NCBI GenBank assembly: GCA_020639315.1
Contig: JACKGM010000001.1
Location: forward strand, 146,511 to 210,510
DNA length: 64,000 nucleotides
Reading direction: 5' to 3'
Source of the DNA: Candidatus Nomurabacteria bacterium
GTDB lineage: Bacteria > Patescibacteriota > Saccharimonadia > JAGOAT01
Each line of letters opens with the position of its first letter. Within the stretch, counting starts at the first letter, position 1. Positions 2,857 through 63,449 of this stretch are shown piece by piece. The notes under the pieces were generated by a model. That model had not been told where the DNA came from. It saw only the letters and a program-made list of their open reading frames with translations, and ran no database searches. Both the position numbers and the translations under genes were made by a program.

Positions 2857-2858
2857 GC

Positions 2859-3352: not shown

Positions 3353-3366
3353 ATGCCCGATAAACC

Positions 3367-10799: not shown

Positions 10800-11166
10800 C
10801 TCTGTCATGCTCAGAACTCCCTGAGTTCCGTCATTCTCAGAGCCTTGCTCTGGGAATCCAGAAAACAAACAACAAACATTAAAAGTAACTGGGGCTTAAT
10901 TCAAATTCGTTATCCATAGACCCATCCCTCCTGTCATCTTCCAAATTTCCGTAGGAAATTATGGGAGATCCACCTCCTCTGTCATCTTCGGATTACCCGG
11001 AGGGGAATACCGGAGATCTAGTATTTGAGTTGAACCCCATAAATGCAAATACTGGATCCCCCGTAAACTCTTTCAGAGTTTCGTAGGATGACAGAAGAGG
11101 GGGTGGATTTTCGTAGGATGACAATGCCTTCCTGCCACCAAACCAAAATACTGCATCCCCGTAGGC
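10800..11166. repeat. hairpin-unit repeat cluster (includes type-4 units)
   Basis: gtcattctcagagccttgctctgggaatccag plus type-1/2 units and half-units. Fills the whole ppa-tpiA gap together with the adjacent MITE. Confidence 0.85.
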
Positions 11167-11167
11167 T

Positions 11168-11331
11168 TATAGCAAGCTCAAAACAAAACCGGACAATTTG
11201 AGCTGTACTATAGAGAACTAGAAAGGTAGTTCTTCTTAAGAGCCATATCCATAGATATGGTGAGTAAGAAAACTAGCTTTATAGACTCTAGAGTTGGGTC
11301 AAAAGTCTGGTTTTGGTTTGGGCTTGCTATA
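11168..11331 (-). mobile_element. 164-bp MITE, family 2 (TATAGCAAGC...GCTTGCTATA ends)
   Basis: Near-identical (reverse complement) to 62747-63074 once the nested element there is removed. Terminal inverted repeats are tatagcaagcycaaaacmaaaacc. Confidence 0.85.
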
Positions 11332-12440: not shown

Positions 12441-12527
12441 TATTCCTCCTTATGCTTAATTATTACACTATTGTATCACATAGCTAAAGCTCAACTAGAG
12501 CTATTTGATAGCAGTAGGGGTAGTACA

Positions 12528-12935
12528 GGATACTGGATCCCCCGTAAGTTCTCCGAACTTCGGAGGATGACAGGAGTCGAGTCATCCTCAACTTTTCCGC
12601 CCTTGATTTGAAGAAAAAGTTGGGGATCCAGAACTCTAGATAATGTACTTAGATTAACTCAATTACTTTTAATGTTTATTGTTAGTTTTCTGGATACCCA
12701 GAGCAAGCTCTGAGTATGACGGATGCAAATACGAGATACTGGATCCCCCGTAATCCTCTATGAGGATTCGGAGGATGACAATCCTCTCCCTGTCATATTC
12801 CAAAATCCTGTAAGGATTTATGGGATATCCAGTATTTGAATTGAACCCCAGAAATGCAAAATACTGGATCCCCCGTAATCCTCTATGAGGATTCGGAGGA
12901 TGACAAAAGAAACGGGTTTCGGGAGAAGGCGGAAG
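12528..12935. repeat. hairpin-unit repeat cluster
   Basis: About six units of types 1, 3 and 4 in both orientations. Abuts the mutM stop codon. Confidence 0.9.
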
Positions 12936-12941
12936 CCTGAT

Positions 12942-13787
12942 CTACTTTTGGCAGTTAGGGCAATAATGGGTTCCCCGTCCAGCATGCTTGACCTTGACGA
13001 TTGGGGCACTGCAAGTCTTGCAAGGTTGCCCTTCCCTATTATAGACTTGGGCAAAATCAAGATATTTGCCTTTCTTGCCATCAACATCTAGATAGTTACG
13101 GCTTGTCGATCCCCCTAGCTCAATACTCTGCTTGATGACTTGGTTTGCTGCCTGATAAACTTTGGCAATTTCATCCACTGACAAGCTTGAGACTAAACGA
13201 TCTGGCCTAACCCCCGCACTGTGGGTAGCCTCATCTGCGTAAATATTACCAATCCCTGCGACCACTGTCTGATCCAGTAAAGCTGCCTTGATACTAGATT
13301 TGGCTTTTCTTTTGAGATTATTCTCAAACCCCTTCAGGCTGATCTCTACAATATCTGGTGCCAACTTCTTGATAAATGGATAGTCGGCCAGAGAGTTAGT
13401 CGGCCAAAGCTCAATATAGCCAAACTTTCTAAGATCATTAAAGTACAAGCTGTAGTCCTCTAGCTGGATAATCACCCTGGTCGACCGATCGGGCATCTTG
13501 CCAATTAGGCTATGGTTGGGATGACCTGCACCCCATTGATGATCCTTGCCTACCACGATTAATTGTCCAGTCATTCTCAAATGAATCAGCACAGAATAAC
13601 TATTATCTAGACCGATCACTAGTAGCTTACCTTTTCTATCAAACCACAAAATTCTAGCACCTACTATCTTACCAGCATCTCCCCTAAATGATTTGGGGCT
13701 TAAGATCTGACAATCAACAATTTTTTGCTGACCAAGGTATTGCCCCAAGCCCCTTCTGACAATCTCTACCTCTGGCAGCTCAGGCAT
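12942..13787 (-). CDS. mutM: formamidopyrimidine-DNA glycosylase
   Basis: MPELPEVE N-terminus, H2TH region, and a C-terminal CxxC...CxxC zinc finger. Confidence 0.9.
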   Translation of the reverse strand: MPELPEVEIVRRGLGQYLGQQKIVDCQILSPKSFRGDAGKIVGARILWFDRKGKLLVIGLDNSYSVLIHLRMTGQLIVVGKDHQWGAGHPNHSLIGKMPDRSTRVIIQLEDYSLYFNDLRKFGYIELWPTNSLADYPFIKKLAPDIVEISLKGFENNLKRKAKSSIKAALLDQTVVAGIGNIYADEATHSAGVRPDRLVSSLSVDEIAKVYQAANQVIKQSIELGGSTSRNYLDVDGKKGKYLDFAQVYNREGQPCKTCSAPIVKVKHAGRGTHYCPNCQK

Positions 13788-17295: not shown

Positions 17296-17484
17296 AAATA
17301 CTGGATCTCATAATTTCCTAAAGGAAATTTGGTTTGGTGACCCAATTCCTGTCATCCTCCGAAGTTCAAAGAACTTACGGGGGATCCAGTATTTTGTATT
17401 TCTGGGATTCAATTCAAATACTGGATATCCCATAAATCCCTCTGGGATTTTGGAATATGACACGGGGGATCCAGTATTTGCATT
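17296..17484. repeat. hairpin-unit repeat cluster
   Basis: Three to four units, including type 3: ggatatcccataaatccctctgggattttggaatatgaca. Confidence 0.9.
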
Positions 17485-21732: not shown

Positions 21733-21776
21733 TTGACTTTTTTAAAGTATGCTATAAATTAAGGTGTTGGGTCTAT

Positions 21777-22004
21777 AAATACTGGATCTCCGGTATTACC
21801 CCAAGGGGTAATCCGAAGATGACACGAAGGAGGCACTGTCATTCTCCGAATCCTCATGAGAGGATTACGGGGGATCCAGCATCCCGCATTGTGAGTTATC
21901 ATCCTCCGAATTCTCCTTGAGAGAATTACGGGGGATCCAGTATCCCGAGCGTTAGTCATCCTCCGAAACCCGAAGGGTTTACGGGGGATCCAGTATTTTG
22001 TATT
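21777..22004. repeat. hairpin-unit repeat cluster
   Basis: One forward type-2 unit and three reverse type-1 units. Ends at the rnj stop codon. Confidence 0.9.
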
Positions 22005-23883
22005 AGATACTATTCACCACTACAAGCACCATGGGTGTCTTGTCGGTCTGGTTGGTCAAGACCTCGCCAATCCTCTCTCTAAGCTTATTTTTGAACTGTT
22101 GAGACTGGGCTGAATTACCAGCGGCAGTGATTAGGCGCTTGGCGAGCACCCTAGCTTTATAAATCAGCTCCTCGTTGTCCTTCATATAGACAAAGCCTCT
22201 AGAAATAATATCTGGACTGTGCAACAAAGCTCCAGTACGCTTATCAATATTAGCAACCAAGACAAATACTCCATCTTCTCCCATAGACTTACGATCCTTG
22301 ACTACTACTGGGGATATTTCTTGAGCCCCAGTCCTACTACCCCCGAGCAAAATAGGTCCGCTAGGGAATTTTGGCCCGAGCTTACCCTTGGCTATACCAT
22401 CTACCAAACCAAACTCGACTGACTGTCCATCTTCAACAACAAAAATATTCTCCTTACTAATCCCTGAGCGTTCAGCGTTAATCCCATTACGAACCAAGAA
22501 GTTGTAATCCCCATGGATCGGTATGAAGTATTTTGGACGCACTAGTGAGATCATCTCCTTGGTCTCCTCCGCACCCGCGTGACCACTAGAGTGAATGTTT
22601 TCAACCTGGTCAAAATCCCTAAATGAATCTTGATAAACATAGGCTCCCAATCGCATCAATTGATCTACTAGCTTACTAATCGCCTGGTCATTACCGGGAA
22701 TAATACTATTGCTCATCACTACCGAGTCACCCCTCTTGAGCTCAATACTAGCATGTTGCTTGCGAGCAATCCTAGCAAGTGAAGCATAGTATTCACCCTG
22801 ACTACCAGTACAAAGAATCAAGGTCTTGCTATCTGGAAATTTTTTCGATCCCTTGAGGGGGGTAATTGCTCCGGGCTTAGCATTGATATATTTGTATTTG
22901 ATCGCTAATTCAATATTGTTTAGCATTGAACGCCCATCGACCAAAACGATTCTCTTGTGTTTGTAAGCCAGATCTAGAATCATTTGTAACCTAGTAATAC
23001 TACTAGCAAAAGCTGAAACGATCATTCTCGTGTTCCCTGCTTTTTCAAATACTTCCTCAAGCCCTTTGACTACAGTCTTCTCAGATACTGAATAACCTGG
23101 CTTGTAACAGCTTGTACTGTCCGCCATCAGAAGCAAGACTCCTTGGTCTCCTAGCTCTTTAAACCTAGCCTTATCAGCGTGAACTCCATCATAAGGGTTA
23201 TCATCAAAGCGATAATCCCCAGTATTGATAATCTTGCCGACAGGGGTGCCAATCACCACAGCACAAGCATCAACTATCGAGTGAATTACCCTAACAAACT
23301 CAACATCAAAAATCCCGATCCTGACTTTTTCGTGCAAATCAGGATCAATAGTTCTAAACTGGGGCTTAAAAGTAAACTTGAACTCACTGATGTTCTTTTC
23401 AATAAACTTGACTGTAAACTTTGAGCCATAGATAGGTACTGGGAATTTTGGCAAGATATAAGGGATACCCCCGATATGATCCAAGTGAGCATGGGTGATC
23501 AAAAGCCCCCTAATCTTATGCTTATTGACTTCCAAATATGTAGGATCGGCAATAATATAATCTATTCCTGGCGTCTCTTCGGTCGGGAAAGCCATCCCCA
23601 TGTCTACTATCAAGATATCGTCTTGATATTCGATTGCCATCATATTCTTACCAATCCCCTCCTTACCAACTCCACCCATCGGGATAATTCTTAGGGTGGC
23701 TACTGGCACAGGGGTTAGATTTGGCAATTTTGCTGGTTCGGTTTGTTTTGACGGCCTTTTTACCTGTTGATCTTTTGGCCTATTGTTTTGTCTAGGCGCA
23801 CTTCGTCTAGGTCTTTGTTCACGCCTACTTTGTAGCGGTTCTGCACTAATTGAAAACCGACTTTTTCGAACTGGTTTATCCAT
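22003..23883 (-). CDS. rnj: ribonuclease J
   Basis: Metallo-beta-lactamase motif HAHLDHIGG, beta-CASP and C-terminal domains, and a basic N-terminal extension. Confidence 0.9.
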   Translation of the reverse strand: MDKPVRKSRFSISAEPLQSRREQRPRRSAPRQNNRPKDQQVKRPSKQTEPAKLPNLTPVPVATLRIIPMGGVGKEGIGKNMMAIEYQDDILIVDMGMAFPTEETPGIDYIIADPTYLEVNKHKIRGLLITHAHLDHIGGIPYILPKFPVPIYGSKFTVKFIEKNISEFKFTFKPQFRTIDPDLHEKVRIGIFDVEFVRVIHSIVDACAVVIGTPVGKIINTGDYRFDDNPYDGVHADKARFKELGDQGVLLLMADSTSCYKPGYSVSEKTVVKGLEEVFEKAGNTRMIVSAFASSITRLQMILDLAYKHKRIVLVDGRSMLNNIELAIKYKYINAKPGAITPLKGSKKFPDSKTLILCTGSQGEYYASLARIARKQHASIELKRGDSVVMSNSIIPGNDQAISKLVDQLMRLGAYVYQDSFRDFDQVENIHSSGHAGAEETKEMISLVRPKYFIPIHGDYNFLVRNGINAERSGISKENIFVVEDGQSVEFGLVDGIAKGKLGPKFPSGPILLGGSRTGAQEISPVVVKDRKSMGEDGVFVLVANIDKRTGALLHSPDIISRGFVYMKDNEELIYKARVLAKRLITAAGNSAQSQQFKNKLRERIGEVLTNQTDKTPMVLVVVNSI

Positions 23884-28844: not shown

Positions 28845-29576
28845 ATGCTAAGCGATATTATTACATGGCTATTCCCTGATAGTTGCTTATCCTGCAACTC
28901 TGAGGGTCAGTTGCTCTGCCTAGACTGCCGAGACAGGCTTAATCCTCATCCAGAGATCTGTTTTGGTTGCAAAAAAACCCAATCAACTTCTGGTTATTGC
29001 CAAAACTGCCAGACAAATTCGGGGCTATTCTCGCTCAAAGCTTGTTACCAATTTGATAACCTTGCAAAACAACTAGTCTACGAAGCTAAATACCAGCTCA
29101 ACCCCAACGCTCCAAAACTGATCAGTCAATTGATACTTGAATCACTGGGGTCAACTTTTTGGCAAGACTTTGACTTGATTAGTTTTATCCCGAGTAGTAG
29201 GCAAAAGCTTAGGCTCAGGGGTAGCAATATAGTCAAAACTGTTGCTAGGAATTTATCGATTGGCTCGGGTTTACCAATAATCGCCTTACTAAATCGGACA
29301 AATAACCATGAACTTGTCGGTCTCAGTAGAGCTGACCGAGTAAAGACTATTATAGGAAGCTTTGAATTAAATACTAAGGCCAAGTCTTTAGATTTGGCTG
29401 AAGTTAGACTGCTACTAATCGATGATGTCTTGACTTCTGGAGCCACCCTGCAAGAAGCCGCTAAGACACTATCTGGGTATGACTTGCAGGTATCGGGGCT
29501 AGTCTTTGCTCATAAGCTTGAGCCAGGGACTGAAAGCCTTATCGCAGGAACAAATCTAATACTGAATCTCCCATAA
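28845..29576 (+). CDS. comFC: ComF-family phosphoribosyltransferase
   Basis: N-terminal Cys clusters (CLSC...CLDC) and the PRTase motif LLLIDDVLTSGATL. The last codons run into a hairpin unit. Confidence 0.8.
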   Translation: MLSDIITWLFPDSCLSCNSEGQLLCLDCRDRLNPHPEICFGCKKTQSTSGYCQNCQTNSGLFSLKACYQFDNLAKQLVYEAKYQLNPNAPKLISQLILESLGSTFWQDFDLISFIPSSRQKLRLRGSNIVKTVARNLSIGSGLPIIALLNRTNNHELVGLSRADRVKTIIGSFELNTKAKSLDLAEVRLLLIDDVLTSGATLQEAAKTLSGYDLQVSGLVFAHKLEPGTESLIAGTNLILNLP

Positions 29577-29896
29577 TTTCCTAAAGGAAATTTGGAAGAT
29601 GACTCAACTCCTGTCATCCTCCGAAACCCGGAGGGTTTACGGGGGAACCAGTATTTTGCACTTCCATGGGTCTAACTCAAATACTGGATCTCCGGTATTT
29701 CTCCCTTGGAGAAATCCGAAGATGACACAAAGAGGGCATTGTCATCCTCCGAAACCTGTCCCTGTCTTGTCATCCTACAAATCTTCATAGAGGATTACCG
29801 GAGATCCAGAGCATTAGTCATCCTCCGAAACCCGCCCCTGTCTTGTCATCCTCCGAAGTTCGGAGAACTTACGGGGGAACCAGTATTTCTGCATTT
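29556..29896. repeat. hairpin-unit repeat cluster
   Basis: About six units and half-units in both orientations. Confidence 0.9.
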
Positions 29897-29980
29897 GATA
29901 GTTTTGGAACTCTGGGGGTCATTGGATTTTGTTTTTAACATGCTATAATAGGATTAATCTTTTAATTTAACTATATAATA

Positions 29981-34967: not shown

Positions 34968-35131
34968 TATAGCATACTCAAAACAAAACCAGCCCTTTAA
35001 CCCACTACTAAAGTACAAAAATCTAGTTTTTCTATTCGCCTTATCATAAGTAAGGTTCACAAAAAAGAACTAACTTTCTAGCTCTTTATTAGTAGTCCCA
35101 AATTGTTTGGTTTTATTTTGGATATGCTATA
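34968..35131 (+). mobile_element. 164-bp MITE, family 2, divergent copy
   Basis: tatagcatactcaaaacaaaaccag...caaattgtttggttttattttggatatgctata has the same length and end structure as 11168-11331. Confidence 0.65.
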
Positions 35132-35184
35132 GCACCCGCAAGCAACCTACGATTTACTAACCCCGTTGCCTCGATAGCGAGCCC

Positions 35185-35386
35185 AAATACTGGATCTCCG
35201 GTATTACCCCAAGGGGTAATCCGAAGATGACAGGAAAGGGTGGATCTCCGGTATTACCCTCCGGGTAATCCGAAGATGACACGGGAAGGGCATTGTCATC
35301 CTCCGAAGTTCAGAGAACTTACGGGGGATCCAGAGCATTAGTCATCCTCCGAAACCCAGAGGGTTTACGGGGGATCCAGTATTTTT
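35185..35386. repeat. hairpin-unit repeat cluster
   Basis: Two forward type-2 and two reverse type-1 units. Preceded by a ~57-bp module (35128-35184) that recurs inverted at 48161-48216. Confidence 0.9.
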
Positions 35387-35481
35387 TGTACTCGCGTTGA
35401 TTATACTCAATCTCAAACACGCAGGATAACTCTACTTGCAAGAACGATTCTGGAGAAAAGATTTATGGAGTAACGTAGCCC

Positions 35482-37110
<1,629 letters not shown>

Positions 37111-37122
37111 CTATTCTCTCCT

Positions 37123-37392
37123 TTATTCTACTACTGCTAAAACATCTTCTTCTTTTAATAGAAGAATTTCTTGACCTTCTATCTTATAATTGGTTGGACC
37201 ATATTGGCTATACAAGACAACCTGTCCGACCTTTAATTCCTTGACATCCACACCGATTGCTAACACTTTGCCTTGTTCGGTTTTCTCCTGAGCGTTTTCT
37301 GGCAAGATAATTCCCGCTGGTGACTTAACTGTCACCTCAATCTTTTCAAGTACTACTCTATCCGCCAAAGGTTTTAATGATACTTTACCCAT
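37123..37392 (-). CDS. groS: co-chaperonin GroES
   Basis: [13 protein letters not shown]-terminus, 89 aa, directly upstream of groEL. Confidence 0.95.
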
Positions 37393-37431
37393 TGATTCTG
37401 TTCTCCTTATCTCTAATAAATAATTTGGCTC

Positions 37432-37458
37432 TTAGCACTCTTGGTCTTTGAGTGCTAA
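37432..37458 (-). promoter_or_regulatory. CIRCE operator upstream of groES
   Basis: TTAGCACTC-N9-GAGTGCTAA, a perfect match. Confidence 0.9.
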
Positions 37459-37468
37459 CTTAAGTTTA

Positions 37469-38110
37469 TTATTCCCTTTCTATTTTGTCAAGAACAGCCG
37501 AAACAGCATGGAGACTAAGCAGATCTCTCTCGACCACCGTAAATGACTTGATGGTGATATTTCTAGCCTGGGCGAAAGTCTTATATTTGTGTAAGCTAAA
37601 TACAAACTGATCAATCCAGCCCAAAACCTTACTCCCAGTATTAGACCAAAACCAGCTACTATTATTATCACTGATCACCCCCCCTTGATCGACCCCAATA
37701 GCCTGCTGACTGAACAATGGCTCAAGCCCGAGCGTTTGATACCACTTCTCTTCCCCGTACACTGGAATCATCACATTGATGTTCTCGCTAGTATAATCAA
37801 GTAGGGGACTAAGCTTGATCTGCCAAGCACTAAACTTTGTCGATATTACTGTCCCTAGACTAAACTTACCAGATTTTGAGACTGAGTTCTCCTTGATATT
37901 AAGCAAACTAAATACGAACAGATACCAAGCTTTGGTCAAATAAATCCGATTGGGCCTAACTAAGGCAACCAAATCAATATCACTAGCTGAAGTTGCTTGC
38001 CCTTTGGCTACACTCCCGGTGACCAAAATTGCCTCTACCCAGGGTAGACAAGATAGTAAGGCCTGGTATCTCTTTGCTTTATCCACTAATTGCTGACTAT
38101 TGAAGCTCAA
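37469..38110 (-). CDS. nucleotidyltransferase (Pol-beta fold) domain protein
   Basis: The GS...DIDL motif is present (VTGSVAKGQATSASDIDLVALV). Confidence 0.55.
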   Translation of the reverse strand: MSFNSQQLVDKAKRYQALLSCLPWVEAILVTGSVAKGQATSASDIDLVALVRPNRIYLTKAWYLFVFSLLNIKENSVSKSGKFSLGTVISTKFSAWQIKLSPLLDYTSENINVMIPVYGEEKWYQTLGLEPLFSQQAIGVDQGGVISDNNSSWFWSNTGSKVLGWIDQFVFSLHKYKTFAQARNITIKSFTVVERDLLSLHAVSAVLDKIERE

Positions 38111-38112
38111 TA

Positions 38113-39468
38113 CTATTGACCTTCAATAAAATTGACCAGTTCGGTTAATGCTTGGCTAGTTAGCTCTTGGCTCTTTGACTCGAGGTTGATTCTCAGATAC
38201 GGCTCGGTATTGGATGCACGAATATTTGCCCACCAATCTCCACTATCTATACTAACCCCGTCCAAAAAGTTCAATTTCTTATCCGAGTATTTACCAGCCA
38301 AAGCTTCCAAAACCTGATCTTTGGCTTCTACTTCCAGGTTGATCTCCCCAGACGAATCGTAGCTAACAAATCGTCTCCTAATCTCTGCCAGAGTCAACTT
38401 CTTATCCTCTAGATATTTAATTACCTTGAGAGTAGTCAATAATCCGCTATCTATCATATAATTGTCGGCAAAATAGTAATGTCCTGAGGATTCTACCCCT
38501 AAGTCTGCCTGATGGCTAATCATTGCCTCCCGGATCGAAAGATATCCAGCCTTACTAATGATGGTTTCAATCCCCAGGCGCTTAGCTAGATCTAAGACAT
38601 TGCGAGATATTCTGATTCCATGCACCAATTTAAGCTTCTTATCTGGATACTGATCCCTAAGGGCCAATACTAAGACAATCGCAGTCAGATTCCCGTCAAT
38701 AAAATCTCCATAATTGTCGACAAAAAATGCCCTGTCGCCATCACCATCAAAACCAACCCCCAAGTCAAGCTTTTTATCTTGCACCAACATAGCAAGATCC
38801 CTCATGTTTTGAGGCAACATCGGGTAGGCTGGGTGATTGGGGAAGCTTCCATCTAGCTCCTGATAAATAGCATCTAGCTCTAGCTTAGTTTTTTGCTTAA
38901 GCTGGTCTACAAATATCCCAGCCATTCCATTGCCCGAATCATATCCTAGCTTGATTTTTGATAGATTGCCGACCACGCCCAGGCAGTGGTCAATCCAGAT
39001 ATCTAAGACCTCCTTGTTTTCAACTTTGCCTGACTGATCAGAGGTAGGGTTAAACTCTTGATTTATTATCTTATCTCTTAATACTTCTAGCCCGGTACCC
39101 AAACCAAGTGAAGTAATACAGCCATTTCTTAACCCCCCAGATACTTTTATCCCAGAATATACTCCAGGATTATGGCTAGCTGTCACCATAAATCCTCCTG
39201 AGTAACCGAACTTGGCAATTGAAAAATTCAACATATCCGTAGTAACCAAACCCAGATCTACTACTTGGCGTCCTTGGACTACCAACCCTTCAATGATTGA
39301 GCTGGCTAATTCTTGAGATTCGGGTCTCATATCTCGACCGACTACAATTATCCCGGCAGAGAAGTAATCTGCCCCAGCTTTACCCAATAAAAAAGCTAGT
39401 CTCGGACTAACATCCTCGACTAGCCCACGAATATCATAACTTTTGAACACATCAAAATTAAGTTTCAC
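38113..39468 (-). CDS. phosphohexomutase (phosphomannomutase/phosphoglucosamine mutase family)
   Basis: TASHNPGVYSGIK active-site loop and GFDGDGDR metal loop. Start set at GTG 39468, 6 nt after GGGAGG. Confidence 0.8.
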   Translation of the reverse strand: MKLNFDVFKSYDIRGLVEDVSPRLAFLLGKAGADYFSAGIIVVGRDMRPESQELASSIIEGLVVQGRQVVDLGLVTTDMLNFSIAKFGYSGGFMVTASHNPGVYSGIKVSGGLRNGCITSLGLGTGLEVLRDKIINQEFNPTSDQSGKVENKEVLDIWIDHCLGVVGNLSKIKLGYDSGNGMAGIFVDQLKQKTKLELDAIYQELDGSFPNHPAYPMLPQNMRDLAMLVQDKKLDLGVGFDGDGDRAFFVDNYGDFIDGNLTAIVLVLALRDQYPDKKLKLVHGIRISRNVLDLAKRLGIETIISKAGYLSIREAMISHQADLGVESSGHYYFADNYMIDSGLLTTLKVIKYLEDKKLTLAEIRRRFVSYDSSGEINLEVEAKDQVLEALAGKYSDKKLNFLDGVSIDSGDWWANIRASNTEPYLRINLESKSQELTSQALTELVNFIEGQ

Positions 39469-39746
39469 GTGAAACCTCCCAATAGAAAATCCACCGTGTG
39501 TCACACCACACGTTCAAAAAGCAACACACTATACCGTCATTTCCCCTTTGATTACCTCTGTAGACAACCACCAGAGAAACCCATTTTTGTTTTACCTACC
39601 TATTGTATCACGGTTAAGTTAAATGTAAAGGGGGCCCTAGGTTCATAAAAAACTAGATTTTTAGACTTTAGTAGTGGGTCAAAAGTCTGGTTTTGTTTTT
39701 AACTTGCATATCTAAGGATAAGCCTCTCTTTAGAAAGAGAACTATT

Positions 39747-39907
39747 AACCCTGTTGCCATATAAACTTGCGAGGTCAAAGCTGATGATTTTTATTCCAGA
39801 CTACCAAAACACGACAAAGCATAACAGGAGTTACGCTGCGAAGTGTTTTGCTAGTCTGGGGCAAAAATGGCAGTTTTGAAGCCGTGAGGTTATATGGCAA
39901 CAGGGTT
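39747..39907 (+). mobile_element. 161-bp MITE, family 1, copy 1
   Basis: 18-bp perfect inverted ends AACCCTGTTGCCATATAA. Flanked by the direct repeat ATT. One difference from copy 3. Confidence 0.9.
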
Positions 39908-40015
39908 ATTACATAGCCCATACTCAAGAATTTATTGCGGCAAGACATAGTGTTAGGTCTATATTCAGGAAATTGGGGAATTGGATTTTGTTTTGAGCTT
40001 GCTATAATATTCTCT

Positions 40016-43680: not shown

Positions 43681-43813
43681 CTCACCCTTCCGAAACCAGG
43701 CCTCTTGTCCTGTCACCCTCCGAACCCTCCGTCTCTCTCTTGTCATCCTCCGAAACTCCGTCTCCCCTGTCATCCTCCGAAACCCGGAGGGTTTACGGGG
43801 GATCCAGTATTTC
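43681..43813. repeat. hairpin-unit repeat cluster (reverse half-unit reiterations plus one full unit)
   Basis: tgtcaccctccgaac.../tgtcatcctccgaaactccg.../tgtcatcctccgaaacccggagggtttacgggggatccagta. Confidence 0.85.
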
Positions 43814-44193
43814 ACACCTTTACTCATCACACTATATGTCTATATATAAGTATCATCAAAAGGCCTTGGTGGACAAGCCAGCTACACTTAGTAGACTGGT
43901 TACAAATAAACTTAAAGAGCAATGCTACTATAGTAGCACAAGTACCACAGAGGCATGCTAAGGTTTACGAATGAGCCACACCAAAAGCCTACTACCTTTT
44001 ATATACCTAATTTACAAAAATACCAAATCTAATCGAAATATATTATCTGGCGGGACAGTAGAAACGATGTTCGAAACCGCAACACAGCGTGAGTATACCT
44101 CATTGAGTGAGGTAATATATGGCTTGCGAGCCTTCAAGATACTGCTAGAGAACATTTTCAGCAGCACCGCAATAACTGGGGCACTATATAGGT

Positions 44194-44484
44194 ATGAACT
44201 ATAGCAACCGCACCGTGCTGACAGACAGCACTAATCAGGCAATCAAGGGGCTTGTAGGGCTGATTGACGCTATACAGGACGCACCACTTGGCGGTGACGG
44301 CAACTCTGGCACGTTTACACTCAGTGACGGCACGCAAGTTACACTCAACTACCAGATAAACAACAGCAAATCTACCACTACTATTACAGTAAGGAGAGGT
44401 ACTTCGAAATACACTATAGTTGAGGAGAACGAAACGGAACAACTGGCACAGGAGTTTCGTAATGATAGACCTTCTCACCTCTAA
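44194..44484 (+). CDS. hypothetical protein (element-encoded)
   Basis: 96-aa ORF on the same strand as its neighbours and overlapping them. No motif recognised. Confidence 0.4.
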   Translation: MNYSNRTVLTDSTNQAIKGLVGLIDAIQDAPLGGDGNSGTFTLSDGTQVTLNYQINNSKSTTTITVRRGTSKYTIVEENETEQLAQEFRNDRPSHL

Positions 44485-44878
44485 TGAGATAGTGAGATAT
44501 AGGGCACTGGGGCTGAGCCTTGATAACATCGCCAAAATCACAGACGTAAGCAAGCCAACGGCAGCCACCGTCTGCAAGCAAAGAGCAGATGACATTACAC
44601 AGGCAAAGCTCACAGCCTCACAGGTTGCTGCTACTGATACGGCCGAAGCCATCACAAGGCGTAAGGTTGTTTATGGGCTGCTACTTGATAAGGCGTACAG
44701 CAGCCTGCTAACAAAAGACTTCGATACTATGAAGCCAAAGGAACTCGCAGGTATGATTCACAGCATTGAACGTAGCTTGTACCTGTTGAACGAGCCCAGT
44801 AATATAAAATCCGCGAGCGAGTATAGCAACATTAGTGATGACACGCTAAGGGCTATGCTTCAATCCGTTGCTAACTAA
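44462..44878 (+). CDS. helix-turn-helix protein (element-encoded; possible regulator or recombination directionality factor)
   Basis: The N-terminus LTSNEIVRYRALGLSLDNIAKITDVSKPTAATV looks like an HTH. Start taken at the internal ATG at 44462. A weak hairpin (44885-44908) follows. Confidence 0.5.
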   Translation: MIDLLTSNEIVRYRALGLSLDNIAKITDVSKPTAATVCKQRADDITQAKLTASQVAATDTAEAITRRKVVYGLLLDKAYSSLLTKDFDTMKPKELAGMIHSIERSLYLLNEPSNIKSASEYSNISDDTLRAMLQSVAN

Positions 44879-45062
44879 AAGTTTACCGTTTCTTTACTAG
44901 TAAACGGTGTTCGCTTTCGTCCTTTTGGACTCATCAGCACAAATACACATTTGTGGAGCGAATATGACAAGCAGACATAGGGTTATAGAAAAACATCACG
45001 GAGGCCGTGAACCTAAGGTATGAACCCATATCCACTTGCCATACTCGCTCTGGAGCTTGTTA

Positions 45063-45662
45063 CTAGACGGTGAAGCCTGCCATGGCCTTCTCCGCCTCAC
45101 TGCGACTCGTATGGAAGCCCATGATGACCAGCGGGCCGGTGAGCTCCCACTCGGGGATGTGCTTGGTGCCGGGGTGGCGCGCCGTGCCGATGAAGAACTG
45201 CGCGACGGCTCCGCCGAGGTCACCCTCGTCGTAGCGCTTGAGCGACTCGTCGACGACCTTCTGCAGCCAGGCACGAGCCTCGCAGTCGGGCACGGTGCTG
45301 ACCTCGCCGGTCTGACGAAGCTGGTCGACGACCTTCTGCGCCGAACCGTCGCCGCCGTTGTCGCGGTCGAAGCCCCGCGGGTCGAACGTGTTGTCGTCCG
45401 TGAGGTCGAGCTTGAGACAGCGGCCGTACAGGTAGTCGAAGTAGAGCTCGGGTAGGCCGGGCAGGTTGATGTCACCGTAGTCGGGCGTGACCGTGTTGCC
45501 GAGTTCGGTCAGCTCCGCCGCCCACTCCTTGGTCATGACGTACGGGCCGTTCTGGAACTGCAGGGCACCCATGCGACGTGGAGCCTCGGCGGCGTTGAAT
45601 AGTGCGGCGAGAACGTCGGCCTTGGACAGGTCGGCGATGTTGACGGTGGGTCGGTCGGACAT
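45063..45662 (-). CDS. high-GC hypothetical protein (199 aa), foreign codon usage
   Basis: Only this one of five overlapping frames has protein-like composition. Nearly all codons end in G/C. GAAGGAAGGA lies upstream of ATG 45662 (the track starts at 45683). Confidence 0.65.
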   Translation of the reverse strand: MSDRPTVNIADLSKADVLAALFNAAEAPRRMGALQFQNGPYVMTKEWAAELTELGNTVTPDYGDINLPGLPELYFDYLYGRCLKLDLTDDNTFDPRGFDRDNGGDGSAQKVVDQLRQTGEVSTVPDCEARAWLQKVVDESLKRYDEGDLGGAVAQFFIGTARHPGTKHIPEWELTGPLVIMGFHTSRSEAEKAMAGFTV

Positions 45663-45732
45663 GATGTCTATTCCTTCCTTCATCTCTGGCGGAGGTGCCT
45701 CTCACATAGCGAGCGTGTGTTTTTCCTATACA

Positions 45733-45784
45733 CACAAGATGAGGTGCAAAAGCGGCTATTGCCGCACTTGCACCTCATCTTGTG
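45733..45784. promoter_or_regulatory. 52-bp perfect nested palindrome in divergent intergenic region
   Basis: CACAAGATGAGGTGCAA / TTGCACCTCATCTTGTG (17 bp) encloses GCGGC-tatt-GCCGC. Confidence 0.5.
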
Positions 45785-45995
45785 GTTGTCTGCTTGTCAA
45801 AGTACCTCGGAGTAACTCTTTACTCAACGAGTACATAGATATTAGCATACTTTAGTTATTTTGTCAATACTCAGCTCTGTATACAACCTAGAAAACATCC
45901 AATTTACTGCGTATGCTGGTAATTCGAAGCATAATCAGACCGACAAACATGTAGTAAAATAGTGCACAGAATATATAATCCTTCGAAAAAACGTA

Positions 45996-47637
45996 ATGGA
46001 ACAGTACCAATCAACCCTAGACTACGAAGAACGGAGCAAGATTTACCGCTACAAGATATATGCTCGTAAATCTTCGGAGGAAAAAGGTCGTCAGGTTCGC
46101 TCCATTGACGATCAGATAAAGGACTATCTGGCACTGGCTCACAAGCAAGGCTTGCAAGTCATAGGTGAGCCAATCAAAGAGGAGAAATCAGCGAAAGTTG
46201 CTCTGGCAGACGACCGCTGTTCAAGGCTCTACTGAAAGAGGTGAAGGACGGCAAAATAGACGGCATCATAGCATGGCACCCCGACAGGCTTGCTCGCAAT
46301 ATGGTAGAGGCTGGCAAGATTATAGATATGCTCGATAAGGAGTTGCTGCGTGACCTGAAGTTTCACTCTCACGCTTTTGACAACAGCTCGAACGGCAAGA
46401 TGATGCTCAGTATGCTGTTTGTGTTCGCAAAACACTACTCTGACGACCTGTCGGATAAGGTGAAGCGAGGGGTTAGGAATAGGGCTGGCGAAGGTAAATC
46501 TGGTGGCACACCGAAACATGGCTACAAACAGGTACAGGGTATCTACTCTGTCGATACCCACAATAACAACCACGAGCTGATAAAAACAGCATGGCACATG
46601 AGGGCTGAAGGCACAGCTCTGCCAGAAATAGCGAAGTACCTGAACGACAACCAATACTCGAAGTACTACACCACAGATGATGATTACCGAATAATGAAGG
46701 TAAGCCCAGCAGCCTCAGTAAAATGTTCAACGACCCCTTCTATTTTGGATGGCTAATACAAGATAAAGGCAAAGCATTTTTACCTGATATGGGCGTAGGG
46801 TTCGTGCCGATGATAACCGAGGAGCTATTCACCACAATACAGCTACTCACACACTCCACGCGCAAGGGCAAGACAAAAGCCAATCAAGAGAGGCTACCCC
46901 TGCGAGATGTTATTTATTGCAATATTTTCCACGGTAAAAATGCGATGATACCTAACGTGCCGAGCAGATACAAACCGAACCCCTACCTATACTTGAGCTG
47001 TAAAAATAAGGGGTGTAGCAGAAGCAAGCCAACAAACGTACGCGCAAAAGTGATACTAGAGGCTATAGAGCCAGTGATTGCCGATGTCATTTCGAGGCTC
47101 ACAGGGGACGCGTACAAGGCTTATTTACGTGAAGCAAAGGAACTCTCGTCTACACAGAAAAAAGCCCTCAGGAGCGAGATGGTGAGGCTACAAGCCACAG
47201 TAGAACGCATAAAGAGTGACAACAACGCCTTGTCACTCAGCCTAGCTAAAATGACAGACGAGAACGTAATCAGGGAAACAAACGGCAAGCTATCTGACGG
47301 ACTGAGCGAAATCAACAAGCTGGAGGTCAGGATTGACGAGGCAGAGCGCAAGCTCAAGCGCCAGGAGAGCCAACACAAAGTACTCACACCACAGGAGTTC
47401 AGTGAAATAATCGAAAAAACAGCGTCAGTATATAAAAATGGCGATGTTTCTCGAAAAGAGCGAATAATACGTGAAATGTTTTCGAAATTATCTTATGGTA
47501 AAGAAAAAGTGGAGTCCTACACCTTACAGGAACCGTTCAGAACGCTTCTTGCGGTGTCAAATGACTCCACTGTTTCTCCTGGCGGAGAGGGAGGGATTCG
47601 AACCCTCGCACCAGCTTTCGCCGGTCTACCGGTTTAG
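45996..47637 (+). pseudogene. large serine recombinase, interrupted by two frameshifts (45996-46235 / 46241-46756 / 46723-47637)
   Basis: YARKSSEE nucleophile motif. RRPLFKALLKEVKDGKIDGIIAWHPDRLARN is readable only after a frame change near 46200-46215. SLSKMFNDPFYFGW follows a second shift near 46697-46700. A Cys-rich zinc ribbon and coiled coil follow. The 3' end reads into the tRNA. Confidence 0.8.
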
Positions 47638-47672
47638 CAAACCAGCCCCTTCAGCCACTTGGGTACCTCTCC
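47580..47672 (-). tRNA. tRNA-Ser(GCU), CCA encoded
   Basis: Hand fold: GGAGAGG/CCTCTCC acceptor, anticodon loop TTGCTAA, variable arm ACCGGC-GAAA-GCTGGT, T arm GAGGG-TTCGAAT-CCCTC. Confidence 0.9.
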
Positions 47673-47790
47673 GGGTAAACTTTTACTTTTGGATTGCAAA
47701 AGTCTTAGGAGATTATAGCAAAATTATTGCTAAATCGAAAGTCAAATTTGTTTTTGTCAAATTTGAATTATGAATGTCAGGGGAATGCTG

Positions 47791-48163
47791 AAATACTGGA
47801 TCCCCCGTAAGTTCTCCGAACTTCGGAGGATGACAAGACAAGAGAGAGTGTCGGAGGATGACAATACCCTTTTTGTGTCATATTCCAAAATCCCAGAGGG
47901 ATTTATGGGATATCCAGTATTTGAATTGAATCCCAGAAATACAAAATACTGGATCCCCCGTAAACCCTCTGGGTTTCGGAGGATGACAATGCACAATGCC
48001 AGAATGCTGGATCCCCCGTAAGTTCTCCGAACTTCGGAGGATGACACAAGACAGGGGGCAGGTTTTGGAGGATGACGGAAGAGTAGTAGGCTTCGGAGGA
48101 TGACAATCCCCCTCCTGTCATCTTCGGATTACCCGGAGGGGAATACCGGAGATCCAGTATTTG
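47791..48163. repeat. hairpin-unit repeat cluster
   Basis: At least five units (types 1-3) plus half-units. Followed by the inverted 57-bp module at 48161-48216. Confidence 0.9.
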
Positions 48164-48222
48164 AGCTCGCTATTGAGGCAACAGGTTTAGTAAATCGCAG
48201 GTTGCTTGCGGGTATACTACAC

Positions 48223-56600: not shown

Positions 56601-56640
56601 AACTTGTTATAACAAGCCTTCCAATCGTCAAATCAATACC

Positions 56641-57450
56641 GAATGCTGGATCCCCCGTAAGTTCTCCGAACTTCGGAGGATGACAATGCCCTCTGTGTGT
56701 CATCTTCGGATTACCCGGAGGGTAATACCGGAGATCCAGTATTTGAATTGAATTCCAGAAATGCAAAATACTGGATCCCCCGTAAGTTCTCCGAACTTCG
56801 GAGGATGACAATCCTCTCCCTGTCATATTCCAAAATCCTGTAAGGATTTATGGGATATCCAGTATTTGAATTGAACCCCAGAAATGCAAAATACTGGATC
56901 CCCCGTAAACCCTCTGGGTTTCGGAGGATGACTAATGCTCTGGATCCCCCGTGAGTTCTCCGAACTTCGGAGGATGACAATCCTCTCCCTGTCATATTCC
57001 AAAATCCCAGAGGGATTTATGGGATATCCAGTATTTGAATTGAACCCCAGAAATGCAAAATACTGGATCCCCCGTAAGTTCTTTGAACTTCGGAGGATGA
57101 CAATGCACAATGCCAGAATACTGGATCCCCCGTAAGTTCTCCGAACTTCGGAGGATGACAATGCCCTTCCGTGTCATCTTCGGATTTCTCTAAAAGAGAA
57201 ATACCGGAGATCCAGTATTTGAATTGAATTCCAGAAATGCAAAATACTGGATCCCCCGTAAGTTCTTTGAACTTCGGAGGATGACAATGCACAATGCCAA
57301 AATACTGGATCCCCCGTAAGTTCTCCGAACTTCGGAGGATGACAAGAGAAAGGTGGGGTTTCGGAGGGATGACAAGAGGGAGACGGAGTTTCGGAGGATG
57401 ACAGGACAGGAACGAGTTTCGGAAGAGGATAGAAGATGACTCGGAGGGTA
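56641..57450. repeat. largest hairpin-unit array (~810 bp, 12+ units and 3-4 half-units)
   Basis: Alternating forward type-1 and reverse type-2/3 units are joined by ccagtatttgaattgaayyccagaaatgcaaaatactgg linkers. Ends with 28-29 bp half-unit reiterations. Confidence 0.95.
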
Positions 57451-57624
57451 CTAATTTGGGCAGATCTATTGTAGGATAAATATAGCCACCGCAAGACAAA
57501 ACCTGTCTATTTTGAGCGATGGATTGTGAGCCGAGAATATTAATAATAGCTTTGTTGGTTGTTAGTTTTACCTTGGGAATCGCTTGCACCTACTATTGTC
57601 TTTAGAATAATGCACTCAGCTATT

Positions 57625-57785
57625 AACCCTGTTGCCATATAAACTTGCGAGGTCAAAGCTGATGATTTTTATTCCAGAATAGCAAAACACGACAAAGCAT
57701 AACAGGAGTCACGCTGCGAAGTGTTTTGCTAGTCTGGGGCAAAAATGGCAGTTTCGAAGCCGTGAGGTTATATGGCAACAGGGTT
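57625..57785 (+). mobile_element. 161-bp MITE, family 1, copy 2
   Basis: Same ends and ATT flanking duplication. Three differences from copy 3. Ends 44 bp upstream of the Mur ligase ATG. Confidence 0.9.
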
Positions 57786-57829
57786 ATTATTGTAATATTA
57801 TTGTTCAGGATATTAAAAAAGGAGATAAA

Positions 57830-60173: not shown

Positions 60174-60282
60174 TATAGCAAGTCAAAAACAAAACCAGAC
60201 TTTTGACCCAGCTCTAGAGTCTATAAAGCTAGTTTTCTATAGTACAGCTCAAATTGTCCGGTTTTGTTTTGAGTTTGCTATA
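60174..60282 (+). mobile_element. family-2 MITE with internal deletion (109 bp)
   Basis: Both ends are conserved. The central ~55 bp are missing between ctagtt(t)tc direct repeats. Contains the intact target site of the family-1 MITE. Confidence 0.75.
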
Positions 60283-60315
60283 TACTGTGCCACTAATCAG
60301 TATTTTGGTTAGCCA

Positions 60316-60525
60316 CTAGAAATGCAAAATACTGGATCCCCCGTAAACTCCTTCGAAGTTTCGGAGGATGACAATGCACAATGCCAGAATACTGGATCCC
60401 CCGTAAGTTCTCCGAACTTCGGAGGATGACAAGACCTCCTCAATCACCAGCCCAAATTTCCGTCCCCTTCCTCCGTCATCTTCGGATTACCCGAAGGGTA
60501 ATACCGGAGATCCAGTATTTGCATT
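60316..60525. repeat. hairpin-unit repeat cluster
   Basis: Two forward type-1 units, one degenerate unit and one reverse type-2 unit. Confidence 0.9.
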
Positions 60526-60529
60526 ATTC

Positions 60530-60907
60530 CTAACCAAACAGAAACTCTAGCCAATGCAGATAATTGGCTTTTTTGGTCTGTGTCTCTTGATCAGTCAAAG
60601 TTTGGACAGGCTCTTCTCCGGGAATAATCACTACACTTTCATTCTCTTTTTTCAGACCAAGCCTAGCCCGAGCCTCTCTTTCCTGATAGGAGTCAGACTT
60701 ATAATATTCCAGTTGGTAACGCAATTGGTTATTCTCTTCCTCTAGGGTGCTGATGTCGGTCTCAAGATTGGAAATTTTCGGATTAAAAAATCTAGTACTA
60801 GAACTAACACGGATTACGGCAAAGGTTAGATAGAGTACAAATAGAACCCCAATCAGGACAATAATCTTCTGAGTATTACGGTTGTTGAGATCTAGAAGCT
60901 CATTCAT
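60530..60907 (-). CDS. ftsB: septum formation initiator (FtsB/DivIC family)
   Basis: N-terminal TM helix, coiled coil (LEEENNQLRYQLEYY), then SDSYQEREARARLGL. Confidence 0.7.
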   Translation of the reverse strand: MNELLDLNNRNTQKIIVLIGVLFVLYLTFAVIRVSSSTRFFNPKISNLETDISTLEEENNQLRYQLEYYKSDSYQEREARARLGLKKENESVVIIPGEEPVQTLTDQETQTKKANYLHWLEFLFG

Positions 60908-60912
60908 CTAGT

Positions 60913-62628
60913 TTAGTTTGTGGAGTTGGTGCTAGATTGATTACTGTTTGTGCTATTGTCTGTAGTGTCCGTATCAGACTGTTCATCATCGGCAGTATCT
61001 GTAGTCTCTACGGGTAGCTTCCACCTCCAAGATTTTATGATATCCGTATAGTTGAGCTGGGCAAATTCTTCACCAAAACTGCCGTCTAGGACAAATCCGC
61101 CATAGCTACTACCGTTGTATAGATAGAGGATTGGAGCCTTGACGATGATTGCACTACGATTTTGTGAGCTATCACTTCCTTCGTCATCAGATTTACTCGA
61201 TGAACTCGAGCTGATAGTGCTACTAGCGGGCTTGTAAATAATAGATACCGCCTCAACACTGTCGATCAAAGTTTCTTGTTCTTTAACTATCTCGACACTA
61301 CTACCTTGCTCTTGTTTCCACTCTGCTACGACTTTTTCTATGGTTTCATACTCCCCTTTGAGTGGTGAGACGACAAAATCATTGTCTTGTTTTTGACCAT
61401 AGGTAGTATCTAGCTTGCAGTCTTTGCTGCTACTCAGTGAATTGTCCGATCTCATCACAAAGTTGAAGCAGTATCGGTCTACCTCAGATAGGCCACTAGC
61501 AATGGTAGTCCTTGAAATTTTCTCTAGACTATCAGCTTGGGCTTGTTCTAGCTCGGCTGGGGTTGGTTCGGGATCGGGTTCTGGCTCGGTGACAGTTACT
61601 GGGTCTGGAGTCGGGGTAGAGTTGCTTCCAGAGCCACTTAGTAGGCTAACTACTATTAAGATGATACCCAAAAAACCCAGTAATGCACCGCCGGCAATAA
61701 TCCCAATCTTCTTGATATCAGGACGGTTGCTGATTGGTGGAGCAAATCCATCAAGGTCATCATCGAAGTCTAGGTCATCACCCGAACCCGAGCTAGATGC
61801 TGGAGTAGGTGCTGGAGCTTGACTAGGCATAGGGGTCGGGGTTTGAGTGGGTACAGGGTCAGAGCCAATCGAATCTAAGCTAACTGATGGTTGGTTTTGA
61901 CTACTTAGGTCAAAGGCGTTTGGATCAAAGTTTCCCAAAGGATCACCAGAAGGAATAGGAGACGGTTCACTAGGCATTTGATGAAGGCTAGGATCGAAAG
62001 GTTCACTGGCAGGAGGGGTAGGTATTGGCTGAGGGGTTGAGGCTTGGGTAGATGGCTCAGCTGGTGAGCTGGCATGAAGTCCACTGAGACCAGGCTGGGG
62101 TTGATCTGATTGGGATCCGAGGCTTGACAGGGGTAGATTGTCTATATTGGTAGGGTCACTACTGGTGGTTGAAGGTTGAGCACTGGAAGCGATCGGGTTA
62201 TTTTGTCCAGGTGAGCTAAACTCTGGGACCCCATTACTCTGGGGGCTGGGTTGGTAGGGCTGGCCAAAATCAGGAGAACCAGTGGTAGGTGGGGCTGTTT
62301 GGGGTTGGCTAAAGTCAGGTACTGGGTTGGCTGGGAGAGAATTCTGGGGATCGGGGACGGGGGTTGGATAGGGAGAACTATCAAGCGGAGGTAAGCTAGA
62401 CCCTTGATCGTATTGACCTATCTGGGGTACGAGGGGTTGGCTTGGTATTTGATTATCAAATGAGGGGTTGGGTTGAGGTGTTGAAGGAGGAACCGATCCA
62501 GGGGTGGATCCTCCTGTCATCTGGACTAAGGGGTTATGTTGGGGTGATAAAGGCTGAGGATTTGTGCCTGGGGCAGGTGGAATAGGATTAAAGCTATTGT
62601 TATTTGGATCTGGCTGGATTGGTTGCAT
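60913..62628 (-). CDS. Pro/Ser/Thr-rich single-pass membrane protein
   Basis: About 330 aa of low-complexity P/S/Q-rich sequence, TM helix IGIIAGGALLGFLGIILIVVSLL, then a globular C-terminal domain. Start set at ATG 62628. Confidence 0.6.
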   Translation of the reverse strand: MQPIQPDPNNNSFNPIPPAPGTNPQPLSPQHNPLVQMTGGSTPGSVPPSTPQPNPSFDNQIPSQPLVPQIGQYDQGSSLPPLDSSPYPTPVPDPQNSLPANPVPDFSQPQTAPPTTGSPDFGQPYQPSPQSNGVPEFSSPGQNNPIASSAQPSTTSSDPTNIDNLPLSSLGSQSDQPQPGLSGLHASSPAEPSTQASTPQPIPTPPASEPFDPSLHQMPSEPSPIPSGDPLGNFDPNAFDLSSQNQPSVSLDSIGSDPVPTQTPTPMPSQAPAPTPASSSGSGDDLDFDDDLDGFAPPISNRPDIKKIGIIAGGALLGFLGIILIVVSLLSGSGSNSTPTPDPVTVTEPEPDPEPTPAELEQAQADSLEKISRTTIASGLSEVDRYCFNFVMRSDNSLSSSKDCKLDTTYGQKQDNDFVVSPLKGEYETIEKVVAEWKQEQGSSVEIVKEQETLIDSVEAVSIIYKPASSTISSSSSSKSDDEGSDSSQNRSAIIVKAPILYLYNGSSYGGFVLDGSFGEEFAQLNYTDIIKSWRWKLPVETTDTADDEQSDTDTTDNSTNSNQSSTNSTN

Positions 62629-62746
62629 TTGTTTTTGTTTGCTCCTTAACGTACTGTTTTTAAGACCGTTTATGTTTATAGTACATAGTATTTGATAAAA
62701 ATGCAAATTTAACTTATTAGATTTGTTCCTAATAATAAACCCGACC

Positions 62747-63074
62747 TATAGCAAGCCCAAACCAAAACCAGACTTTTGACCCAACTCTAGAATCTATAAC
62801 CCTGTTGCCATATAAACTTGCGAGGTCAAAGCTGATGATTTTTATTCCAGACTAGCAAAACACGACAAAGCATAACAGGAGTTACGCTGCGAAGTGTTTT
62901 GCTAGTCTGGGGCAAAAATGGCAGTTTTGAAGCCGTGAGGTTATATGGCAACAGGGTTTATAAAGCTAGTTTTCTTACTCACCATATCTATGGATATGGC
63001 TCTTAAGAAGAACTAGCTTTCTAGTTCTCTATAGTACAGCTCAAATTGTCCGGTTTTGGTTTGGGCTTGCTATA
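62747..63074 (+). mobile_element. family-2 MITE carrying a nested family-1 MITE (164+161+3 bp)
   Basis: The outer sequence matches 11168-11331 (reverse complement) except for the 161-bp insert plus a TAT duplication. Confidence 0.9.
62798..62958 (+). mobile_element. 161-bp MITE, family 1, copy 3 (nested)
   Basis: Flanked by a TAT/TAT duplication. Its internal 17-bp stem is perfect. Confidence 0.9.
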
Positions 63075-63100
63075 TCAAAACTATCTAGTGGTAGCAAGGC

Positions 63101-63345
63101 TTGTCATCCTCCGAAGTTCAGAGAACTTACAGGGGATCCAGGGCATTAGTCATCCTCCGAAACCCAGAGGGTTTACGGGGGATCCAGTATCTCTGCATTT
63201 ACAGGTATTCAATTCAAATACTGGATCTCCGGTATTTCTCCCTTGGAGAAATCCGAAGATGACAGGAGAGGGTGGATCTCCGGTATTACCCTCCGGGTAA
63301 TCCGAAGATGACGCGAAGTGGGCGGAAATTTGGAAGATGACACTA
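63101..63345. repeat. hairpin-unit repeat cluster
   Basis: Two reverse type-1 units, two forward type-2 units and half-units. Confidence 0.9.
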
Positions 63346-63449
63346 GAAAAGCATTGTCGTCTTTCATGATAAAAAAAAGTTTTTGTGTAATAGGTATAGG
63401 CTGGGTTAAAAGTGTTTCTGTAGGATGGGTAGATTGCTATAATGATTCA

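Follow-up and report, generated by a model that had tools for sequence, protein, structure and literature searches.

Nested insertion of a MITE that very probably derives from a DDE-transposase insertion sequence in a repeat-rich Saccharimonadia genome

How did a 161-bp sequence come to lie inside a different, 164-bp repeat, and what kind of enzyme could have placed it there? This is the question raised by positions 62747-63074 of the DNA analysed here, a stretch of 64,000 nucleotides (the window) from a Candidatus Nomurabacteria bacterium of the Saccharimonadia. The genomes of Saccharibacteria and other CPR bacteria are very small and, in most descriptions, contain little mobile DNA, and a CPR genome of the type of this host is roughly 1 Mb in size and belongs to an epibiotic organism. 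The genes of the window include those for GroES/GroEL, a phosphomannomutase-type enzyme, two FemAB-type proteins, TsaD, RecF, a Mur ligase, an arginase-family protein and DivIC. The repeats of the window have a cyanobacterial look at first sight, but a cyanobacterial origin was rejected, as the proteins resemble those of CPR bacteria and the exact GroEL and arginase-family sequences are assigned to Candidatus Saccharibacteria. Distributed among the genes are several families of short repeats, of which the 161-bp element is here called family 1 and the 164-bp element family 2.

A preliminary description, made from the letters of the window alone, reported three 161-bp copies of family 1 that differ from one another at one to four positions, with 18-bp perfect inverted ends, an internal 17-bp stem and an overall fold resembling a rod. 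Pairwise comparison of the copies, inspection of the ends of all three and folding against shuffled sequences bore out each of these points. Copy 1 occupies positions 39747-39907, copy 2 positions 57625-57785 and copy 3 positions 62798-62958, all on the + strand; the three thus lie within 23 kb and have the same orientation, and their flanks are unrelated. Each is exactly 161 bp long. Copy 3 differs from copy 1 at one position and from copy 2 at three, and copies 1 and 2 differ at four, which corresponds to mutual identities of 97.5-99.4% (0.6-2.5% divergence). Copy 1 is situated between the divergent phosphomannomutase-type and FemAB-type genes, and the ATG of the Mur-ligase gene is 44 bp downstream of the end of copy 2. 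The perfect inverted end has the sequence AACCCTGTTGCCATATAA, with its exact reverse complement at the other end. When up to three mismatches are allowed, this 18-mer is found at six sites in the window, all of them ends of family-1 copies, against 0.04 sites expected by chance, and none of 100 shuffled sequences reached six. The rod is nearly continuous and contains the 17-bp internal stem. Its minimum free energy, computed with DNA parameters, is -51.5 kcal/mol, compared with -17.8 ± 3.0 kcal/mol for the shuffles (z = -11.1). The element is non-coding, the sole overlapping open reading frame being a mechanically called 95-aa frame starting with TTG at copy 1. A scan for promoters and terminators around copy 3 gave nothing that exceeds the shuffled background, and the strand asymmetry of the RNA fold was small and inconsistent from copy to copy.

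The third copy had been described as lying inside a 164-bp family-2 element, in a span of 164 + 161 + 3 bp, and restoration of the host element confirmed this arrangement. The span 62747-63074 measures 328 bp. The left part of the interrupted element (its positions 1-51 of 164) covers 62747-62797 and the right part (positions 52-164) covers 62962-63074, both on the + strand. A comparison of the flanking repeats places TAT at both junctions, at 62795-62797 on the left and at 62959-62961 on the right. Deleting positions 62798-62961 (161 + 3 bp) leaves a sequence of 164 bp that matches positions 11331-11168 at 97.6% and free of gaps. This intact family-2 element, 164 bp long and located on the - strand at 11168-11331, carries the uninterrupted 21-bp target ctctagagtcTATaaagctag in reverse-complemented form at 11273-11293. 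The same target is present at 60212-60232, in a family-2 element on the + strand (60174-60282) that sits just after a tRNA-Met gene. The two other family-2 copies with an uninterrupted target that had been proposed are therefore both found, with the qualification that the one at 60174-60282 is internally deleted, having a length of 109 bp and being without the central 55 bp. At both empty sites the TAT is single (60222-60224 and 11281-11283). The empty sites for copy 3 are thus paralogous repeat copies inside the same window.

Direct repeats of ATT, ATT and TAT had likewise been noted around the three copies, and we find them at every one: ATT at 39744-39746 and 39908-39910 for copy 1, ATT at 57622-57624 and 57786-57788 for copy 2, and the TAT pair given above for copy 3. 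A fourth copy, in the metagenome contig L072, is a 164-bp element that is 78% identical to family 1, has the same ends and is flanked by a perfect AAT duplication. Duplications are thus perfect in four of four MITE copies. PIF-Harbinger elements and several IS5 subgroups produce duplications of 3 bp. The earlier claim of recent transposition stands; the length assigned to the duplication stands less firmly, a 4-bp duplication with a 160-bp element fitting the four copies equally well. In that case the element would read ACCCTG...CAGGGTT and the duplications ATTA, ATTA, TATA and AATA, the base after the 3' repeat being A in all four copies and equal to the first base of the element. A further variant, with a 159-bp element and a 5-bp duplication (TATTA, TATTA and TAATA), fits three of the four copies and requires a mutation in copy 3. 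We consider both of these longer duplications unlikely, as the 161-bp element has ends that are symmetric to the last base (AACCC...GGGTT), and position 1 belongs to the end of the corresponding insertion sequence (see below) in copies of it with differing flanks (A or G). The symmetry of the ends, read from the sequence, favours a 3-bp duplication and a 161-bp element, and we use these lengths in what follows.

According to the preliminary description, the window holds no autonomous partner of family 1, and the 18-bp ends were to be sought on either side of a transposase gene elsewhere. On the first point, a tblastn search of the window with the transposase described here gave a best E value of 0.24, in agreement with the claim. 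On the second, the outcome was positive: L097, a 1261-bp contig from a different metagenome than the organism of the window, contains an insertion sequence of about 1.08 kb with a DDE transposase. The exact 18-bp ends occur there in inverted orientation, 1084 bp apart, and enclose an open reading frame of 320 aa. The predicted protein matches DDE_Tnp_4 (PF13359) with 85.8 bits (cut-off 24.8, E 3.2e-24) and, in its N-terminal part, HTH_Tnp_4 (PF13613) with 39.9 bits (cut-off 27, E 3.1e-10); DDE_Tnp_1 is also matched above the Pfam cut-off. The sole NCBIfam match is NF033581 (transpos_IS5_4), which with 62.6 bits is below its cut-off of 140 bits. The residues of the catalytic triad, D146, D221 and E265, are invariant in an alignment of 10 transposases that extends down to 40% identity.

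The search with the 18-mer covered several collections. Among genomes, with one genome per species, it returned 28 single matches in unrelated taxa, with about 17 expected by chance on a rough estimate, and no element. Among viral contigs and plasmids there was no match. Among metagenomes it gave 87 stretches, most of them single chance matches and three of them informative (L072, L097 and the contig L106 discussed below). Homologues of the L097 transposase are numerous (2557 at E <= 1e-10) and are encoded mostly on contigs of about 1.0-1.4 kb, a length range typical of multi-copy insertion sequences, which tend to assemble separately. Related insertion sequences whose transposases are 77-92% identical to that of L097 measure 1082-1096 bp, and their ends deviate from the 18-mer at one or two positions. 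Among annotated transposases, the nearest are encoded on cyanobacterial plasmids and labelled 'transposase family protein', with 40-46% identity and different ends (TAGAGTTGTTGGGAAATA). In one set of insertion sequences, with an 84%-identical transposase, the resemblance to the MITE extends over 35-42 bp at each end. In the insertion sequence encoding the protein P0010, the right end corresponds to the left end of the MITE over 42 bp at 88%, and the left end to the right end of the MITE over 36 bp at 86%. Given this subterminal likeness beyond the terminal inverted repeats, the MITE is best read as a derivative of the insertion sequence that has kept about 40 bp of each end. The two flanks of full-length insertion sequences on metagenome contigs differ from each other (AGT/ATT, AAT/ATT, ACT/AAT and TAT/AAT), and for this reason the 3-bp duplication is documented for the MITEs only. 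Chimeric short-read assembly, in which flanks of different copies of a multi-copy insertion sequence are joined, may account for these unmatched flanks. In L097 itself (positions 100-176), the insertion sequence directly follows a Walker-A motif (IAIDGRGGSGKTT) of an open reading frame and, from the sequence of that frame, appears to interrupt a gene for a P-loop NTPase or kinase.

From these comparisons, we conclude that family 1 is very probably a non-autonomous MITE that retains the ends of an insertion sequence of about 1.08 kb with a 320-aa transposase of the HTH_Tnp_4 + DDE_Tnp_4 architecture (IS5 / PIF-Harbinger type). The element is small, non-coding and present in multiple copies; it ends in inverted repeats, is flanked by target-site duplications, and has both a filled site and an empty paralogue of that site. 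In the mechanism that we propose, a transposase supplied in trans would bind the 18-20-bp terminal inverted repeats of the 161-bp element and excise or copy it. Insertion would then take place where a short A+T-rich sequence (ATT, ATT, TAT or AAT) has been cut with a stagger, and repair of the stagger would yield the 3-bp duplication. Copy 3 would have entered the stem of a 164-bp family-2 repeat that was there before it, and other copies of this repeat have kept the unoccupied site. As the family-1 copies are near-identical, this activity would be recent. We infer that the transposase family represented in L097 moves the family-1 MITE, that it does so by cut-and-paste chemistry, and that a copy of such a transposase exists, or existed recently, in the host genome.

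The 161-bp unit could also be viewed as a structured non-coding RNA gene, or as a REP/BIME-like palindrome disseminated through recombination or by a Y1 (RAYT) transposase, rather than as an element mobilised by a DDE transposase. The stability of the fold and the shared orientation of the three copies in the window would be in keeping with this, as would 9 of the 66 base pairs of the rod, in which both partners differ between the window copies and L072 while pairing is retained. In the controls, none of 500 column shuffles reached nine such pairs, and structures slid by one to three columns gave none to two; the count comes from one comparison with a single divergent sequence (L072, 78% identity). 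Against this stand the target-site duplication at every copy, the identity of the ends with those of the DDE insertion sequence in L097, the unrelated flanks, and the location of one copy within a repeat whose paralogue shows the empty site. An Rfam scan of the whole window returned only four tRNAs and left the family-1 element unmatched, and a permissive scan of positions 62600-63400 gave just sub-threshold, spurious matches to microRNA hairpins. REP and BIME sequences are palindromes of 20-40 bp with a GTAG or CGTC head, and REP elements are not known to produce target duplications; the family-1 element measures 161 bp, is flanked by duplications and shares its ends with a DDE insertion sequence. 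The preliminary description had named a conserved non-coding RNA at fixed orthologous sites, free of flanking duplications, as the finding that would speak against a MITE. What we find instead are unrelated flanks, duplications everywhere and no Rfam family, and we regard an origin of the 161-bp unit as an RNA gene or REP-like palindrome as highly improbable.

With family 1 read as a MITE, the double-sided changes in the rod could result from the way such elements form, or from selection, as far as the aligned sequences indicate. That selection keeps the rod, because transposition depends on a hairpin or cruciform or because a structured transcript acts on neighbouring genes such as the Mur-ligase gene downstream of copy 2, seems doubtful to us. 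If true, it would, together with family 2 and the dense hairpin modules described below, mean an active repeat expansion in a CPR genome with regulatory consequences.

The junctions of the nested insertion were compared with an independent metagenome contig, L106, which reproduces the left junction with 99.7% identity over 954 bp (window positions 62008-62961). The MITE in L106 differs from copy 3 at two positions. After it, at positions 976-1064 of the contig, AAT and hairpin-module sequence replace the right half of family 2. Either L106 is a chimera that passes through the repeat, or the population has another copy with that flank; unless the contig is chimeric, its right flank implies at least one further MITE copy elsewhere. 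An assembly artefact, or a segmental duplication or recombination between repeats in place of an insertion, is the least credible account of the nested arrangement and can be set aside: short-read contigs do break at the repeats (L029 ends inside copy 1 and L136 starts just after copy 2), and in L106 a different right flank follows the left junction of copy 3, but both family-2 halves abut the element exactly and with a perfect 3-bp duplication, removal of 164 bp gives a gap-free element, as is not expected from misassembly or recombination, and the left junction has the independent backing of L106.

The effect of these repeats on assembly is apparent from related genomes. Positions 35326-39793 of the window are 100% identical to contig JAGQMQ010000057.1 of the metagenome-assembled genome GCA_020428505.1, which ends inside copy 1, and another contig of the same genome begins immediately past copy 2 and stops just short of the family-2 copy at 60174. 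Because of these repeats, short-read assemblies break into contigs of 2-5 kb, and look-ups of flanking proteins for polymorphism between strains gave only short contigs that end at repeats. In L031, from a 98.7%-identical strain, the block from GroEL to phosphomannomutase is shared and synteny is lost at position 39630. Past this break, L031 (positions 1-1508) contains two different genes and a short family-2-like sequence. A clean empty site for copy 1 was not obtained in L031, synteny being lost at the edge of the adjacent repeat cluster. Repeat clusters may thus mark points of rearrangement.

Sequences related to the MITE and to the insertion sequence probably occur in other Saccharimonadales genomes too, to judge from the genes next to them. 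L072, which carries the diverged MITE, also contains a fragment of an arginyl-tRNA synthetase gene, and the best organism-named matches of its product are from Candidatus Saccharimonadales, Saccharibacteria and Patescibacteria, with 61-70% identity; this contig probably comes from another Saccharimonadales genome. L141 contains a relative of the insertion sequence (77% protein identity, ends AACCCTGTTGCCAATTAA) that adjoins a gene for ribosomal protein L25. The only organism-named match of this L25 is from Saccharimonadales, with 63% identity, and several homologues are encoded on contigs of 0.66-1.19 Mb, a length expected for complete CPR genomes; a Saccharimonadales origin of L141 is likewise probable.

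Family 2, the host of copy 3, is itself MITE-like in sequence: it is 164 bp long, has inverted ends of about 23 bp (TATAGCAAGCCCAAACCAAAACC) and folds into a rod (z = -9.7). TA is found at both edges of every family-2 copy and could be a TA duplication, as in IS630/mariner-type elements, or part of the ends. In addition to the copies described above, the window contains a diverged full-length family-2 element at 34968-35131 (+ strand, 72% identity) and a family-2-like half copy at 39647-39707 (- strand), 40 bp from copy 1 of family 1. Two further candidates for nesting were rejected. Family-2-like ends near copies 1 and 2 (39982-40006 and 57481-57505) fail to pair, which speaks against a second nested arrangement there, and L056, considered as a case of family 2 inserted in family 1, was dismissed on account of an alignment that is too weak. 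In L056 (positions 1-128), the first 66 nt are unrelated sequence; they precede the right-hand 62 nt of a family-1-like element (85%), after which comes AAT. This element has either been truncated or been interrupted by another sequence.

A third kind of repeat consists of hairpin modules of 40-60 nt, which form dense clusters on both strands in many intergenic regions of the window. They are found at 2630-3370, 10920-11100, 12500-12960, 17320-17450, 21770-22020, 29540-29900, 35180-35390, 43760-43830, 47760-48190, 56610-57450, 60300-60545 and 63080-63370. The modules have conserved flanks, either GGATCCCCCGTA ... TCGGAGGATGACA or TGTCATCTTCGGATTACCC ... GGTAATACCGGAGATCCAGTATTT, and stems that vary and stay complementary (AAGTTC/GAACTT, AAACCC/GGGTTT, AATCCTC/GAGGATT and AAACTCC/GGAGTTT). 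Between recF and the Mur-ligase gene, about 1 kb is almost wholly made up of hairpin modules. Such a load of hairpin-module repeats is unusual for a CPR genome.

The window also contains a probable integrated element at about 43900-47640, adjoining the tRNA-Ser(gct) gene at 47580-47672. It encodes a large serine recombinase that is split into two open reading frames (46241-46756 and 46723-47637). A gene flanking the insertion sequence in L128 is 41% identical to this recombinase. Within the integrated element, a block at 45000-45700 with 65% G+C (window 42% G+C) holds a 206-aa open reading frame. A candidate hammerhead type III ribozyme (RF00008) with the full CUGAUGAG...CGAAA core is located at 44909-44963 on the - strand; its score of 38.4 bits is below the gathering score of 48.5, with E = 7.7e-07 for the 501 bases scanned. 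The block with the ribozyme candidate recurs in the unrelated contig L132, at 88% over 69 bp, and a relative of the insertion sequence is present on that contig too.

The presence of two MITE families, one inside the other and with near-identical copies, provides direct evidence, from sequence, that this lineage has seen recent transposition. The mechanism as such is textbook knowledge, and the interest of the locus lies in its host, a reduced CPR genome with several repeat families, in the effect of the repeats on assembly and in a possible tool. Saccharibacteria have only recently become genetically tractable, and a native transposon tool for them could be built from the 18-bp ends and the 320-aa transposase. 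In a literature search for earlier reports, none mentioned Saccharibacteria together with MITEs, and the two that mentioned Patescibacteria together with MITEs did so only incidentally.

Compared with known systems, the partner insertion sequence resembles the IS5 subgroups ISL2, IS1031 and IS427 of the ISfinder classification, which produce duplications of 2-4 bp: it is about 1 kb long, encodes a single transposase of about 320 aa with a DDE triad and has a TGTTG core in its ends, and the MITE that shares these ends is flanked by a short duplication. It differs from these subgroups, whose ends start with G, in that its ends start with AACCC, and its transposase scores far below the cut-off of the NCBIfam IS5 model (62.6 against 140 bits). 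The likeness to the Tourist and PIF-Harbinger elements lies in the DDE_Tnp_4 domain of the partner transposase and in the combination of short elements having terminal inverted repeats with an A+T-rich 3-bp duplication. Nested insertion into other MITEs is common among the Tourist MITEs of eukaryotes. Harbinger elements depend on an additional Myb-like protein, and their duplications are specifically TWA; the partner insertion sequence, in contrast, has a single open reading frame with an N-terminal HTH_Tnp_4 domain, and the MITE copies, which are bacterial, are flanked by ATT, TAT or AAT.

Judged by analogy, the closest described bacterial case is Nezha, a MITE of Anabaena and Nostoc. According to the summaries of Zhou et al. 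2008 in PMC3184786 and PMC3049150, it is matched by the insertion sequence ISNpu3 in another species, and its mobility is deduced from empty and filled sites. Nezha shares with family 1 a length of about 130-170 bp, terminal inverted repeats in common with an insertion sequence, direct repeats at its flanks and a predicted fold of high stability, as well as a matching insertion sequence found in another organism and a mobility inferred from a comparison of empty and filled sites. The likeness is one of kind, and the host of family 1 belongs to the Saccharibacteria/CPR and not to the cyanobacteria. Moreover, whereas the empty site of Nezha is an orthologous locus, that of family 1 is supplied by paralogous copies of the host repeat within one genome.
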